DNA from: Candidatus Terrybacteria bacterium RIFCSPHIGHO2_01_FULL_43_35 | GTDB taxonomy: Bacteria > Patescibacteriota > Minisyncoccia > Terrybacterales > GWB1-40-14 | Direction of reading: 5' to 3' | Assembly (NCBI GenBank): GCA_001822815.1 | Contig: MHSR01000016.1 | Location: 1-62,913, forward strand | Length of the DNA stretch: 62,913 bases | Part shown: positions 2 through 62,325 of the stretch, piece after piece | Position numbering within the stretch: position 1 is the stretch's first letter | Layout: every line of letters begins with the position of its first letter | Position numbers and translations under genes: made by a program | The notes under the pieces: model-generated | The model's database searches: none | Told to the model about the DNA's origin: nothing | What the model saw: the letters and a program-made list of their open reading frames with translations, nothing else

Positions 2-781
2 GCGGCCGGAAAACAGCTAAAAATAGTAGCAAATTATGCGGTAGGTTTTGACAATATTGATCTTGCCGCGGCGAAAGAACGCGGCGTCATGGTTAGCAAT
101 ACGCCGGAAGTCTTATCCGAGACCGTCGCCGAACACACCTTTGCTTTAATGTTGGCTATCGCACACCGTATTGTGGAATCAGATAAATTTATGCGTGCTG
201 GCAAATATAAGGGCTGGGGCCCAATGTTGCTTTTGGGTAGAGATCTTGCGCATAAAACCGTAGGCGTTGTGGGCTTGGGCCGCATAGGTTCTTTGGTGGT
301 TAAGCATGCGGTGCGTGGTTTTGACGCCCAAGTAATTTATTATGATGTTAAGCCCAATCCTTCTTTTGAAGCAGAATATAGCGCGCGTTTTGTTCAATTG
401 CCGGAATTATTGCGCAATGCCGACTTTGTATCCATACACGTTCCATTATTGCCGACAACCCGCCATTTAATAAGCGAGAAAGAACTCTCGATGATGAAAA
501 AAACTGCCTATCTTATCAACACTTCGCGAGGACCCATTGTTGATGAAGCGGCATTGGTGAAAGCGCTTAAGAACAATGTTATATCCGGAGCGGCTATAGA
601 TGTTTTTGAAAATGAGCCAAAGATGGCAGATGGTCTCGCAGAACTTGATAATATAATCATCACGCCGCATATCGCCTCGGCCACCATAGAGACACGTGCA
701 AAAATGGCTCAACTTGCGGCAGAAAATATCATTGCCGCCTTGGAAGGCAAAACGCCACCTACTTTGATTCAGATTAAATAA
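2..781 (+). CDS. D-isomer-specific 2-hydroxyacid dehydrogenase (glyoxylate reductase / D-glycerate dehydrogenase-like), 5' truncated by window edge
   Basis: The frame is open from base 2 (AAGKQLKIVANYAVGFDNIDL...). Motifs: NTP, Rossmann GLGRIG, INTSRGPIVDE, DVFENEP, TPHIASAT. Confidence 0.9.
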   Translation, partial: AAGKQLKIVANYAVGFDNIDLAAAKERGVMVSNTPEVLSETVAEHTFALMLAIAHRIVESDKFMRAGKYKGWGPMLLLGRDLAHKTVGVVGLGRIGSLVVKHAVRGFDAQVIYYDVKPNPSFEAEYSARFVQLPELLRNADFVSIHVPLLPTTRHLISEKELSMMKKTAYLINTSRGPIVDEAALVKALKNNVISGAAIDVFENEPKMADGLAELDNIIITPHIASATIETRAKMAQLAAENIIAALEGKTPPTLIQIK

Positions 782-7536: not shown

Positions 7537-7659
7537 CAATGTTATATTGTTTTTAGCGCATTATCTTGGCGTCAGTGTAGCTCTCCGTCGGCTGGCGGAG
7601 ACAGAGTGGCTGTTTTGTGCTAGTCCCGTTACAAATGCCGAGGTAGCTCAGCGGCAGAG

Positions 7660-7764
7660 TCCCGCCTCTTGCGCCGGAGTAGCTCAGAGGCAGAGCAATT
7701 GTTTTGTAAACAATAGGTCGTGAGTTCGATTCTCACCTCCGGCTCATCGGCGCAAGAGGCGGGA
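7660..7764. repeat. 17-bp perfect inverted repeat pair (inner layer)
   Basis: TCCCGCCTCTTGCGCCG (7660-7676) / CGGCGCAAGAGGCGGGA (7748-7764). Confidence 0.95.
7673..7744 (+). tRNA. tRNA-Thr(UGU), intact
   Basis: Full cloverleaf: GCCGGAG/CTCCGGC, GCTC/GAGC, ATTGT-TT-TGT-AA-ACAAT, GTGAG-TTCGATT-CTCAC, discriminator T; CCA not fully encoded. Confidence 0.95.
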
Positions 7765-7892
7765 TAAACAGCAGGTCGTGAGTTCAAAGCTCACCCTCGG
7801 CTCCACGGCATTTGTAACGGGATAAACAGGTCGCCCCGCAATTGCGGGGCCGCTGGCTCATATTCCTATTTGATTTTTAAAACATTAAGTAG

Positions 7893-44221: not shown

Positions 44222-44276
44222 GTCCAGCACCAGAGCCAGGCACTTCGACGGGCTCAGCGCTGGCACGGTGCTGGAC
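44222..44276. repeat. palindromic element with CTTCGAC..GCTCAG core
   Basis: GTCCAGCACC/GGTGCTGGAC and GCCAG/CTGGC stems around CT-TC-G...C-TC-AG. Confidence 0.7.
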
Positions 44277-44398
44277 TGCGCCAAATTATAGAGGAGAGTA
44301 TTTATCAGACCAGAGCTTTATAGTCGCAAATGGGCGTTTTTCTTGTTTTCGTCTTTGGCTTGCTTATAGCACCAAAAATATATATAATAAATAGTTTT

Positions 44399-56636: not shown

Positions 56637-57023
56637 ATGCGTAAAGAAGTTGATGTAAAAGCGATTGCCGCCGCCTTTCTTGATTCAATAGAGAAAATTC
56701 CGATTTCCGAACAGCCGAAGGCCATAAAAAAATTTGTCGGTTTCCTTTTGGCGAATAATTTATTGTCGCAAGCCGGTAATCTGCTTGTGGCAATTAAGGA
56801 AGAAGCAATGAAACGTAAGGGTATTACAGCGATGACATTTCAGAGTGCAGGTGACCTTTCCGATGCAGATATAGCAAAAATGGCAGGTTCCCTTGCCGGA
56901 GATCTAGAGCACATAAAAGACAATAGTTTGCTTGGAGGTTTAAAAATGAAGATAGGTGATAAAGTGGTTGATGCAACGGTTCGAAGAATGTTTGAGCAGC
57001 TGTTCAAAGGTATAAATAATTGA
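56637..57023 (+). CDS. atpH: ATP synthase F1 subunit delta (short)
   Basis: Operon position; D.SLLGGLKMKIGDKVVDATV. Confidence 0.85.
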   Translation: MRKEVDVKAIAAAFLDSIEKIPISEQPKAIKKFVGFLLANNLLSQAGNLLVAIKEEAMKRKGITAMTFQSAGDLSDADIAKMAGSLAGDLEHIKDNSLLGGLKMKIGDKVVDATVRRMFEQLFKGINN

Positions 57024-57033
57024 AATATCGTGG

Positions 57034-57170
57034 ATCCCGTTAGAAACACATAGCGGGCAATAGAAAATTTACGAGATATAATAAGTGATTAATCTTTAAA
57101 ACAGGTTTTGCGAATTATTACGGAAGCGCTTTAGTGTCTTTCGTAAAGCGCTTCCTGTTTCTAACGGGAT
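57034..57170. mobile_element. 137-bp MITE-like element with perfect 15-bp TIRs, overlapping the atpA start codon
   Basis: ATCCCGTTAGAAACA (57034-48) / TGTTTCTAACGGGAT (57156-70); internal hairpin GGAAGCGCTTTA/TAAAGCGCTTCC; ATG at 57169. Confidence 0.75.
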
Positions 57171-58674
57171 GGATACCAAAAAGCTTATTGATGAACTGAA
57201 AAAAGAAATTGCTGGCGCAAAACTAAAAGTTCGTGCCGAAGAGACTGGCCGCGTCCTTTTGGTTAAGGACGGCGTGATCCGCATATCCGGACTTTATTCC
57301 ACAGGCGCTTTGGAAATGCTTATTGTTCGAGCGCATGAAGGCGAGGTATCGGCAATGGCCCTTAATCTTGATGCCGATCAGGTTGGAGCAATCGTTTTGG
57401 GCGATTGGGAGAAAATAAATGAAGGAGACGAGGTTGTTGGTACCGGCAAGATATTATCAGTTCCTGTTGGCGATACGTTTTTGGGACGAGTAGTTAATCC
57501 TTTGGGCGAACCATTGGACGGCAAGGGTCCAATAAAAGCTAGTAAATATAATCCGCTTGAAAGAATTGCGCCCGGCGTTGTCACAAGAAAATCTGTGGAT
57601 ACTTCTTTAGCAACGGGCATTAAAGCAATAGATGCCATGATTCCAATAGGTCGCGGTCAACGCGAACTTATAATTGGTGACAGACAGACTGGCAAAACGG
57701 CAATAGCCGTAGATGCGGTATTAAATCAAAAAAATACTGGAGTTAAATCAATCTATGTTGCCATAGGCCAGAAAATGTCACGCGTGGTGAAAATAGTTAC
57801 AGAACTTGAAAAACGCGGAGCTTTGGATAATACAATTGTTGTTGTGGCCTCCGCCTCTGATCCAGCCGCATTTTCATACATTGCGCCATATGCTGGATGC
57901 GCTATGGGTGAATATTTTATGGATCAAGGGAAAGACGCTTTGGTTGTTTATGACGATTTATCCCGCCACGCATGGGCATATAGGCAGGTAAGTTTGCTGC
58001 TTGAACGTTCTCCGGGTCGGGAGGCATATCCGGGTGATGTATTTTATCTGCATTCACGTTTGCTTGAGCGCGCCGCGCGTATGTCTAAAGAATACGGCGG
58101 TGGTTCTTTAACCGCTTTGCCCATAATAGAAACACAAACCGGTGATATTTCCGCGTATATTCCCACAAACGTTATTTCAATAACCGATGGTCAAATTTAC
58201 CTTGAGAGCGAGCTTTTTTATCAAGGTATTAGGCCGGCTTTAAACGTGGGTTTATCCGTTTCTCGCGTGGGTTCTGCGGCGCAAACCAAAGCAATGAAAA
58301 AAGTTGCCGGCAAATTGCGTCTTGATTTGGCGCAATATCGCGAACTTGCAGTATTCGCACAGTTTGCACAGGATTTGGATGAAGCAACTAAGAAACAGCT
58401 TGAGCGCGGCAAACGCTTAACCGAACTCCTGAAGCAGGGTCAATATGCGCCAGCGTCAATGGAAGAACAAGTTGTAGTACTTTATGCGGGAGTTAATGGA
58501 CATTTGGACACCATTGCGCCAGATAAAGTGCGTGATTGGGAAAGCGGATTTATTGAATATTTAAAACGACAAAACGAAAAAATTCTGACAAATATACGAG
58601 ACACCAAAAATTTAGATGACGAAACAGAGAGTGCCGTGAAGCAAGCTATTGAAGATTACAATAAAATTATATGA
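57169..58674 (+). CDS. atpA: ATP synthase F1 subunit alpha
   Basis: [47 protein letters not shown]. Confidence 0.97.
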
Positions 58675-59330
58675 TCGCGTTTAAAGCCCCTCTTAAAAGG
58701 GTAATTGTTATTATAGGCGCAATACTTATTTCATCCGAGCTTTTTATACTTTGGCAAGAAACCGTATTAACAGAAATTAGGGTCAACAATGCGCATATAA
58801 AACTTAACGAAGCCCGTCAACATTATATGGAGCGCACCGAAGCCATTATTAAAGCAGCGAAAGCAAAAGAGCAGCTAAGTTCTGGTGAGATAGATACCGC
58901 AAACTGGAAAACGTATCGCAACGATAAATGCGGCTATAATATAAAATATCCGGAAGATTGGACAATAGAGTTTTCTGGTTCGGGACTCATCGCTCAATTA
59001 ACCAACGTTTTTCTTAACGGACCAGACAGTAGTAATGTCTATGAGCAGGTCACAATATTTTGTGAGAAAAATGAATCTGGAAAAACGTTGAACGATTTCC
59101 GCGCCCCAAGCGGGTTTGTTTTTGAGGTTAAAGATTACATCCTTGATAACGTTACCTCGTTAGAAAGACTCGTATGGTCGGGTGACGGAGCAACAACCCA
59201 AATCATCGCTTTTAAAGGCCGATATTTATACGATATATCTTTCTATGAGAATCAGACTAGTGGTCCCAGAACCGATAAAACCGCCCAACTTATTGGGCAA
59301 ATCCTTTCCACCTTTAAATTTATTGAATAA
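58671..59330 (+). CDS. PsbP-like membrane-anchored hypothetical protein inserted in the atp operon
   Basis: TM, WKTYRN...[15 protein letters not shown]; overlaps the atpA stop. Confidence 0.7.
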
Positions 59331-62192: not shown

Positions 62193-62264
62193 ATCCCGTT
62201 AGAGACAGCCCGCCCCGCAGACACTTTGTGCGCGCTTACGCGCGGGCGCGGTCTCTAACAGAAT
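62193..62264. repeat. second, shorter ATCCCGTTAGA-family element after the atp operon
   Basis: ATCCCGTTAGAGAC ... GTCTCTAACAGAAT (2 mismatches to a perfect TIR); GC-rich internal stem. Confidence 0.65.
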
Positions 62265-62325
62265 TGACTCTTAGTATAATAACCATATAATCAATAAACA
62301 AAAAAGCTCATTATTACGAGGCCAT

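Follow-up and report, generated by a model that had tools for sequence, protein, structure and literature searches.

The nearest published system to the element analyzed here is the Ssn/NTS pair, in which SsnA of N. meningitidis, a 94-aa single-domain GIY-YIG nuclease, binds a hairpin repeat in single-stranded DNA (ssDNA) and cuts just upstream of it (Chenal et al. 2025, PMC11893778). The cognate repeat stands on both sides of the gene, and this NTS-ssnA-NTS arrangement was termed "identical to" an insertion sequence (IS) by its authors (PMC11893778). A second group for comparison is the MITEs (miniature inverted-repeat transposable elements) of bacteria, such as Correia/CREE of Neisseria, ERIC, RUP, and Nezha (PMC3184786). 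The locus examined here is the 145-nt spacer between atpH and atpA in a 62,913-nt stretch of DNA, hereafter the window, which is contig 16 of the 827-kb, 25-contig assembly of Candidatus Terrybacteria bacterium RIFCSPHIGHO2_01_FULL_43_35 (G000; contigs of this and other genomes carry C numbers). We conclude, with a probability of about 0.8, that the spacer is a non-autonomous, gene-less copy of a very small mobile element bearing a GIY-YIG nuclease gene and that it lies at the start codon of atpA.

The spacer and its relatives resemble the bacterial MITEs in their length of 57-275 bp, terminal inverted repeats, short duplications, many dispersed intergenic copies, long RNA hairpin, and presence or absence between related genomes (PMC3184786). 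Bacterial MITEs are defined by inverted repeats around a core of less than ~400 bp, a target-site duplication, and dispersed copies with empty sites (PMC3184786), all of which were found here. The element fits that definition save that its presumed parent has no recognized transposase; longer elements with the same ends do exist, and they code for a GIY-YIG nuclease whose transposase activity is putative. A preliminary description of the window, made from its letters, had proposed a MITE-like element belonging to one repeat family. The MITE reading is strongly supported by 46 paired copies with common ends and varied interiors, by duplications, and by empty sites.

The atpH-atpA spacer and its empty site

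The spacer holds a perfect 15-bp inverted repeat, as previously noted, with arms complementary at 15/15 positions and at 86% over 22 nt (Table 1). The atpA start is the ATG at 57169-71; no other in-frame start follows the upstream stop at 57097-99, and the AtpA N terminus aligns with its orthologues from residue 1 (orthologue MDSKKIIEELRKEI). The A and T of this ATG are therefore the last two bases of the right arm, again in agreement with the preliminary description.

The sole same-genus genome compared, G001, has an AtpA that is 87% identical; a search of other genomes with AtpA for further close relatives gave none above 67% identity. The G001 junction is empty, reading ...AAACAA-TAA-GT-ATGGATTCT, that is, the atpH stop, 2 nt, and the ATG, so that the comparison with relatives proposed in the preliminary description did yield an empty site (TAA-GT-ATGGAT). 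Insertion into A|TGGA with duplication of TGGA reproduces the G000 sequence exactly, save for a later A-to-G change in the old start. The element entered the atpA start codon, duplicating TGGA; the old start became the relic GTGGAT at 57030, and the terminal A of the element together with the duplicated TG forms the working ATG. The start codon was thus duplicated rather than newly supplied, since G001 has ATGGAT at this position and G000 retains the former start as GTGGAT (57030-35). The earlier suggestion that the element supplies the atpA start holds in that its terminal A completes an ATG with the duplicated TG, but not in the sense that a new start codon was brought in.

Elsewhere among the relatives the atpH-atpA spacer measures 0-25 nt, with the exception of G018. 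This class-level relative has a spacer of ~170 nt (locus L003, about 1330-1500, upstream of atpA) with unrelated AT-rich inverted repeats (GAATTTGGAATTTTGAATT ... AATTCAAAATTCAAAATT), and its junction may have been hit by another element family.

The orthology of other element sites between G000 and G001 was established by tblastx of the flanks against the whole of G001, nucleotide-level comparison being too insensitive. Colinear orthologous flanks were obtained for 29 sites. In G001, 9 of these are clean empties (atpH-atpA included), 14 hold unrelated sequence, often of other inverted-repeat families, and 6 carry a CCCGTTAGA-type element. The family element is missing in G001 at 23 of the 29 comparable sites, so most insertions are younger than the split of the two species. 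The atpH-atpA copy itself has no intact open reading frame (ORF) and is old as judged by its identity of 81.8% to the nearest copy, C4:841-988.

Other explanations of the spacer were considered. A chance or terminator hairpin was ruled out by the copy number, by the flanking duplications, and by the finding of no promoter-like or terminator-like site inside the element. Rfam 15 gave no match for the spacer at gathering score (the sole hit, mir-290 at 18.5 bits against a threshold of 51, is due to chance), ruling out a known RNA family. In an integron attC site RYYYAAC lies 5' and GTTRRRY 3', whereas the order is reversed here (GTTAGA 5', TCTAAC 3') and flanking duplications are present. Finally, the gene-less elements are not read-through coding inserts, as their lengths are not consistently 2 mod 3 and their mini-ORFs stop within the elements.

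Table 1. Coordinates of the element, its neighbors, and related repeats in the window
Feature	Positions	Strand	Remarks
atpH (delta/OSCP)	56637..57023	+	OSCP domain; stop TGA at 57021-23, 10 nt 5' of the helix base
Relic of former atpA start (GTG GAT, 57030-35)	57030..57053	+	7-codon mini-ORF VDPVRNT* across the left arm
TGGA target-site duplication, left copy	57031..57034	+	Identical flanks; single ATGGAT at the empty G001 site
Left arm of perfect 15-bp inverted repeat, ATCCCGTTAGAAACA	57034..57048	+	Core CCCGTTAGA at 57036-44
Non-autonomous element, subfamily A	57035..57169	+	135 bp, terminal T to terminal A; internally deleted derivative of GIY-YIG-bearing element
Internal perfect 12-bp hairpin, GGAAGCGCTTTA / TAAAGCGCTTCC	57122..57155	+	Remnant of two inverted stretches of parent-ORF coding sequence, LRKRF and LKRFL
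Right arm of inverted repeat, TGTTTCTAACGGGAT	57156..57170	+	Final bases are A and T of the atpA ATG
atpA (F1 alpha subunit), host gene with start codon as target	57169..58674	+	501 aa; Pfam ATP-synt_ab 3.7e-82
TGGA target-site duplication, right copy	57170..57173	+	TG part finishes the atpA ATG
Second family member, GC-rich ~68-bp subfamily, after atpC	62194..62263	+	TTGA duplications 62190-93 and 62264-67; T..A-ended
Outer inverted repeat of nested tRNA-Thr cassette (TCCCGTTACAAATGCC / GGCATTTGTAACGGGA)	7624..7822	+	Arms 7624-39 / 7807-22; no flanking duplication

A genome-wide family and its GIY-YIG parent

The core CCCGTTAGA was found 83 times in G000, compared with about 5 expected occurrences. 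Family termini were defined as YCCCGTTAGA...TCTAACGGGR, with ends taken as (T/C)CCCGTTAGA...TCTAACGGG(A/G), and plus-strand and minus-strand core hits were paired by arm complementarity. This matching yielded 46 paired elements, so that the genome search advocated in the preliminary description did produce further copies. By length the elements group at about 57-71, 78-92, and 117-138 bp, at about 200 bp where one element is nested in another, and at 273-275 bp; no family end pairs more than 330 bp apart were found in G000. Their 4-nt flanks are identical in 32 of the 46 copies, with three of four positions matching in 6 more; the duplication of TGGA on both sides of the atpH-atpA copy, likewise proposed earlier as a check, is one such case. 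The interiors form at least eight multi-copy subfamilies that have the ends alone in common, and copies are 80-98.6% identical to one another.

An internal pair of filled and empty sites was also observed. Three composites of ~200 bp contain a 78-bp element at CAGTAAA[C...G]TAAAAAT, and two uninterrupted copies read CAGTAAAAAT at the same place. As the three composites are 90-98.6% identical, they moved as units after nesting. Subfamilies B and A stand in tandem at C1:25248-25592 and C8:38192-38533, with one shared 4-nt duplication (TAAA or TTCA) between them, and the subfamily-B copy in these arrays holds the nested 78-bp element. A solo CCCGTTACAAAT at C1:26860, at the apparent end of a coding region, has no partner and is probably due to chance.

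Across 41 distinct copies, terminal positions 2-10 (CCCGTTAGA) are invariant or nearly so, each being at least 90% conserved, whereas positions 1 and 11-13 are variable yet complementary between the arms. At position 1 the pair is C.G in 23 copies and T.A in 16. At position 11, 23 copies have A.T and 18 have G.C, and 0/41 are mispaired. Within subfamily A, A.T at position 11 is confined to the atpH-atpA copy and represents a compensated change private to it.

The ends of the elements coincide with expression signals of host genes. Among the T..A-ended copies, 13 of 19 adjoin the ATG of an ORF of at least 76 aa, and this ATG arises where the terminal A meets the TG of the duplication, TGAA or TGGA. 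The bias toward start codons has a P of about 8e-13 against all TGRA sites and lies far above a rough intergenic-only null, which we estimate at about 14% per insertion. A relic start, ATG or GTG, is retained by 10 of these 13 copies. Copies that bear an ORF adjoin the starts of host genes in six of eight cases from seven genomes, and the host genes at these sites are unrelated save for one 28%-identical pair. The C..G-ended copies have mostly TTGA or TCAA duplications and lie mostly on TTGAC -35 boxes. Such duplications flank 11 copies, three of them T-ended at the left, and in at least 7 of the 11 the pattern TTGAYN-16..18-TANNNT was present on the TTGA side. All copies of a subfamily face the same way relative to the asymmetric (non-palindromic) duplication (9/9 in A, 5/5 in B), which we take to indicate strand-specific insertion.

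Other repeats occupy similar positions. At the host start codon ATGAATTACG, one of the six sites with a family element in both genomes, a subfamily-A copy is found in G000 (C1:22655-22790) and a copy of another subfamily, with GAAAATTGC arms, in G001 (C24:23949-24098), which points to independent hits or replacement at one site. The G001 start-codon sites C25:14625-14775 and C15:7693-7924, orthologues of the G000 sites C13:17106 and C22:5924, are filled by a different repeat family with arms CAAGATACAAG ... CTTGTATCTTG in place of CCCGTTAGA; inverted-repeat families of still other kinds are found at two more G001 sites. DNA close to start codons seems to be a general landing zone.

The largest members in G000, of 273-275 bp (C22:5924-6198 and C24:32009-32281), are both filled by an ORF. 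This parent ORF has 94 aa, one version reading MNPVRDSKFFYTYILESKKDKRWYTGFTLDLRKRFNEHN...KRFLSLTG*, and matches the Pfam GIY-YIG family PF01541 at 1.6e-17. The nearest solved structure is UPF0213 BH0048 (PDB 1zg2, 2e-10); Slx1 is a weak hit. At C22:5918-6202 the 5' end, ATGAAT-CCCGTTAGAGAC (ATGAAT-CCC-GTT-AGA-GAC), encodes MNPVRD and the 3' end, TCTCTAACGGGA-TGA (TCT-CTA-ACG-GGA-TGA), encodes SLTG-stop, showing that the inverted repeats are the ends of the nuclease ORF. The stop TGA overlaps the host-gene ATG as ATGA. The full form measures 273-282 bp and consists of a single-domain GIY-YIG gene of 83-95 codons and nothing else; elements of other genomes with these ends and this ORF are 268-282 bp long. 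The second ORF-bearing copy of G000, C24:32009-32281 (minus strand), is C..G-ended and lies within a 251-aa open frame, so its nuclease ORF may be read through into neighboring sequence. A more distant small GIY-YIG gene (36% identical) without CCCGTTAGA ends occupies C1:44018-44242, ending 6 nt before a tRNA-Met gene (44248-44319).

In a MAFFT alignment all eight subfamily-A copies, that between atpH and atpA included, match both ORF-bearing elements over their initial ~115 and final ~38 nt, and one ORF-interior deletion of ~140 nt is common to the eight. This deletion joined the LRKRF and LKRFL segments, which now adjoin as the hairpin at 57122-55. As judged by this alignment, the subfamily-A interior is a remnant of the GIY-YIG nuclease gene. 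The view of the interiors as variable cargo is thus accurate insofar as they differ under common ends, but subfamily A does not carry arbitrary DNA.

The family has a patchy, burst-like, yet widespread distribution. YCCCGTTAGAR termini number 16-91 in 8 of 30 class-level relatives, and 20 of 301 evenly sampled Patescibacteria genomes have at least 10 termini (maximum 145), with no more than 11 for a reversed-pattern control.

Two further repeats of the window had been tied to the atp element in the preliminary description. The copy reported after atpC is genuine, although its right arm is degenerate (CTCTAACAGAA). Its right duplication is the start of a -35 box in a promoter-like TTGACT-16-TATAAT (11/12, 62264-62291) for the next gene. 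The outer repeat of the tRNA-Thr cassette does match the start of the terminal inverted repeat at 11 of 13 positions (TCCCGTTAGAAAC and TCCCGTTACAAAT, 7624-7636), and it has TCCCGTTA in common with the family. However, it carries a compensated C/G at position 9, where 41/41 distinct family copies have G, and its flanks differ (CTAG and TAAA). The proposed single family linking the atp and tRNA loci is better described as two sister repeat types; in our reading, YCCC...GGGR ends mark a superfamily rather than one family, and the tRNA link is a family resemblance only.

Additional tRNA cassettes of G000 have the ends TCCCGCC... and CCCCGCCCCAAAA. At C9:3087-3199 a tRNA-Ile gene lies between CCCCGCCCCAAAA and TTTTGGGGCGGGG, which are similar to the ACCCGCCAAAA ends that a GIY-YIG element has in G026 (locus L034), a hint that tRNA cassettes and nuclease elements have end types in common. 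At C8:92313-92410, C11:1768-1881, and C13:167743-167840, tRNA genes are enclosed in 21-bp helices that prolong the acceptor stem outward, for example TTTATAGCCAGCGCTGCGGGA ... TCCCGCAGCGCTGGCTATAAA around tRNA-Gln. Within the window, a 219-aa ORF (58671-59330) with a weak PsbP_2-like match (1.5e-4, under cut-off) separates atpA from atpG; its overlap with the atpA stop takes the form ATGA, and the ORF is an unusual extra gene for an F1 gene cluster.

Candidate movers and possible effects on atpA translation

The same ends together with a GIY-YIG ORF, intact or decayed, were found in seven genomes of different families (G000, G010, G020, G004, G011, G003, and G030, where the ORF of the repeat-bounded element is a pseudogene). 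Among 24 small GIY-YIG loci from 31 relatives, 12 are bounded by an inverted repeat (score >=13), compared with 0 of 96 control windows from the same loci. The bounding repeats are of at least six sequence types, each beginning YCCC or CCAGG, and the catalytic residues Y13, Y24-x-G26, R34, H38, and E58 are invariant in 12 repeat-bounded ORFs. Two repeat types beyond the CCCGTTAGA family were searched. Type CCCAGTAAGAC has 53 termini, mostly in pairs of ~130-145 bp (about 26 gene-less), and type CCCCAACACTAATC has 6; the former occurs only in G004 and the latter only in G006, each the holder of the corresponding GIY-YIG gene. Such confinement of extra copies to the genome of their own GIY-YIG is expected of an enzyme and its site, not of cargo.

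These associations suggest that the GIY-YIG protein of an intact copy may move the elements in trans, a proposal from sequence to which we give a little less than even odds. The protein would recognize the invariant CCCGTTAGA ends, paired as a hairpin in ssDNA, and cut at the hairpin base, a recognition step modeled on the published Ssn GIY-YIG nucleases acting on their own hairpins. Insertion would be strand-specific, T..A-ended forms preferring ATGRA and C..G-ended forms TTGAC.

The elements might instead be ordinary MITEs moved in trans by a conventional transposase, for example of the DDE type, that is absent or unassembled in the drafts, the GIY-YIG gene being passenger cargo. The great diversity of interiors, at least eight multi-copy groups having only their ends in common, would suit such an enzyme, and a 4-bp duplication with symmetric inverted repeats is typical of cut-and-paste IS families; moreover, draft metagenome-assembled genomes often lose repeated IS copies. 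We nevertheless regard this explanation as rather unlikely. A classical IS parent was rejected because family ends in G000 never lie further apart than 330 bp and its assembly showed no multicopy IS, individual transposase Pfam families not having been searched genome-wide. The six or more repeat types at GIY-YIG genes, the two that multiplied only in the genome of their own nuclease, and the orientation-specific insertion also argue against a conventional transposase.

An alternative role for the nuclease itself is that of a homing-type or site-specific enzyme acting at start-codon and -35 sites with repair copying, or of a domesticated nuclease, as proposed for Neisseria SsnA (e.g. in incoming-DNA control), the repeats having spread otherwise. 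GIY-YIG enzymes are classic homing endonucleases, the ORF weakly matches TIGR01453, a model for group I intron endonucleases (2.5e-5, under cut-off), and different subfamilies occupy one and the same start codon in G000 and in G001. Ssn nucleases, for their part, pair with genome-wide hairpin repeats and modulate transformation (PMC11893778). Homing, however, needs flank homology between donor and recipient, and apart from the 28%-identical pair the host genes are unrelated; nor are duplications of variable sequence around copies of one subfamily made by repair-copying. The published SRM hairpin motif, HGTCWY..YYVSBRH..WNVSBRG..RNCYNB, is not enriched in G000 (2 matches, compared with 1-8 in shuffles). 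Both forms of this explanation are improbable.

Taking the nuclease as mover one step further, the repeat-GIY-YIG-repeat unit (273-282 bp, 83-95 aa) could be a self-sufficient transposon of a new enzymatic class, in which an Ssn-like nuclease recognizes its own ends as an ssDNA hairpin and inserts strand-specifically. We put this forward tentatively and with some doubt. Insertion at ATGRA would borrow the host start for the nuclease ORF and return a rebuilt ATG via the ATGA stop-start overlap, and C..G-ended variants would rebuild TTGAC -35 boxes likewise. Gene-less derivatives such as the atpH-atpA copy are proposed to leave expression of the host gene intact, as ribosomes could open the hairpin from the relic start.

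Several points weigh against a mobile element driven by its own nuclease. To our knowledge GIY-YIG enzymes are no established transposase class, and we know of no hairpin/ssDNA transposon of the IS200/IS605 group that yields 4-bp duplications. The role of the nuclease is proposed from sequence, not from observed transposition, an excision product, or nuclease activity. G001 and G012, with 74 and 91 termini, have no close repeat-bounded GIY-YIG gene in their drafts (best 51% and 42% identity), as would be anticipated with a conventional transposase, and the ORF-bearing copy C24:32009-32281 has no flanking duplication. The covariation of the arms is partly explained by shared descent within subfamilies, and the start-codon bias could in part arise because, with ~90% of the genome coding, only insertions that do no harm survived. 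With regard to atpA, the effect on translation is drawn from a predicted fold, and unmasking of the start relies on a putative restart at the relic GTG because a ribosome terminating on atpH reaches only about as far as the helix base.

For a 191-nt RNA around the spacer the predicted minimum free energy (MFE) is -48 kcal/mol (z -3.24). Both the MFE and the centroid structures contain the repeat helix, by which the element is closed and the A and U of the AUG are base-paired; the AUG is thus predicted to be sequestered in the helix base. The relic GTG at 57030 lies 6 nt 3' of the atpH stop and opens a 7-codon ORF across the left arm. In the operon mRNA, the arms would pair and the base of the hairpin would hold the A and U of the AUG; ribosomes leaving atpH could restart on the relic ORF, unzip the left arm, and expose the AUG. 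The ancestral coupling of atpH and atpA would thereby be kept rather than lost. That hairpin and relic restart together preserve coupling in this way is possible but rather unlikely.

The same fold raises the question of whether the spacer is mainly a host-selected regulatory RNA, either for coupling or as an RNase III hairpin adjusting atp subunit ratios, its repetition reflecting re-use of a leader. Besides the stable structure and the location of the AUG within the helix base, two precedents fit: the E. coli atpHA mRNA is reported to use structure for coupling (Rex et al. 1994, J Biol Chem), and repeated leaders with a ribosome-binding site and ATG are known from Neisseria REP2 and Borrelia IR (PMC3184786). 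We consider this very improbable. The junction is short and free of any element in the same-genus genome and other relatives, the interior is a decayed nuclease gene, and no Rfam family matches. Mobile DNA is typically recognized by just such features as flanking duplications, nesting, copies in tandem, and sites specific to a lineage.

Comparison with known systems

A literature search, with most subscription journals outside its scope, found no description of repeat-bounded GIY-YIG transposons or of Patescibacteria MITEs. The structure of the E. coli atpHA mRNA is said to mask the atpA initiation region and to be opened by upstream translation. The gene pair is the same; there the structure is native, whereas here it would be imposed by a mobile insertion and is only predicted. 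Because the start codon is regenerated, the insertion is tolerated at an operon junction that is essential and tightly coupled, in a streamlined genome of 0.83 Mb; the atpH-atpA copy thus gives a concrete example of a transposon that is "harmless by design". For annotation, the family accounts for many of the odd long "leaders" and tiny ORFs found directly at start codons in genomes of the candidate phyla radiation.

The Neisseria REP2 and Borrelia IR-A leaders (PMC3184786) are likewise dispersed repeats directly upstream of genes that contribute an ATG. They differ in having their own promoter and ribosome-binding site and no duplication-flanked inverted repeats; in the family described here only the A of the ATG is element-derived.

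The IS200/IS605 elements with REP/RAYT (HUH Y1) are similar in being very small, with hairpin-recognized ends, strand-specific insertion by a short target word, and swarms of gene-less palindromic derivatives. They use an HUH tyrosine enzyme, produce no target duplication, and have sub-terminal hairpins, whereas the present family has a GIY-YIG protein, duplications, and terminal inverted repeats; its duplications and nuclease thus place it apart from that group, no genome-wide search for a Y1 transposase having been made. Should the nuclease prove to be the mover, it would represent a new transposase chemistry beyond DDE, HUH, serine, tyrosine, and Cas1, and would offer a minimal sequence- and structure-specific DNA tool. 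If the unit is indeed a self-sufficient transposon, no autonomous mobile element of cellular genomes may be smaller.

The known MITEs are derivatives of IS with recognized transposases, whereas the only longer relatives here carry a bare GIY-YIG gene. The Correia elements differ further in their TA duplication, 26-bp repeats, and ends. Also distinctive relative to known MITEs are the exact insertion of the present family on start codons and -35 boxes, the regeneration of the signal, and the strict orientation.

Agreement is closest with Ssn. Both systems have a single-domain GIY-YIG protein of about 94 aa (here ORFs of 83-96 aa with PF01541 as sole domain and Y13, Y24, and E58 invariant in 12 ORFs), cognate repeats flanking the gene, repeats that number in the hundreds per genome, and a pairing of enzyme with repeat that changes in concert from lineage to lineage. 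By eye, the NTS stem ATTCCCGCG...CGCGGGAAT after GTCAT resembles ATCCCG...CGGGAT after TTCAT or GTCAA here. By sequence the protein is nearest to UPF0213 (1zg2); the Ssn nucleases are placed in the CDD clade cd10448 and are reported to cleave single-stranded DNA only, beside their hairpin (PMC11893778). NTS and SRM are self-contained hairpins of 20-50 nt, whereas the flanks here are the two arms of one long-range inverted repeat. The family ties a large class of uncharacterized small GIY-YIG proteins to cognate repeat swarms. It also extends the Ssn/NTS precedent from nuclease-adjacent repeats to elements with defined targets: flanking duplications, empty sites, and start-codon targeting, which have not been described for Ssn, are all present in the family to which the atpH-atpA element belongs.

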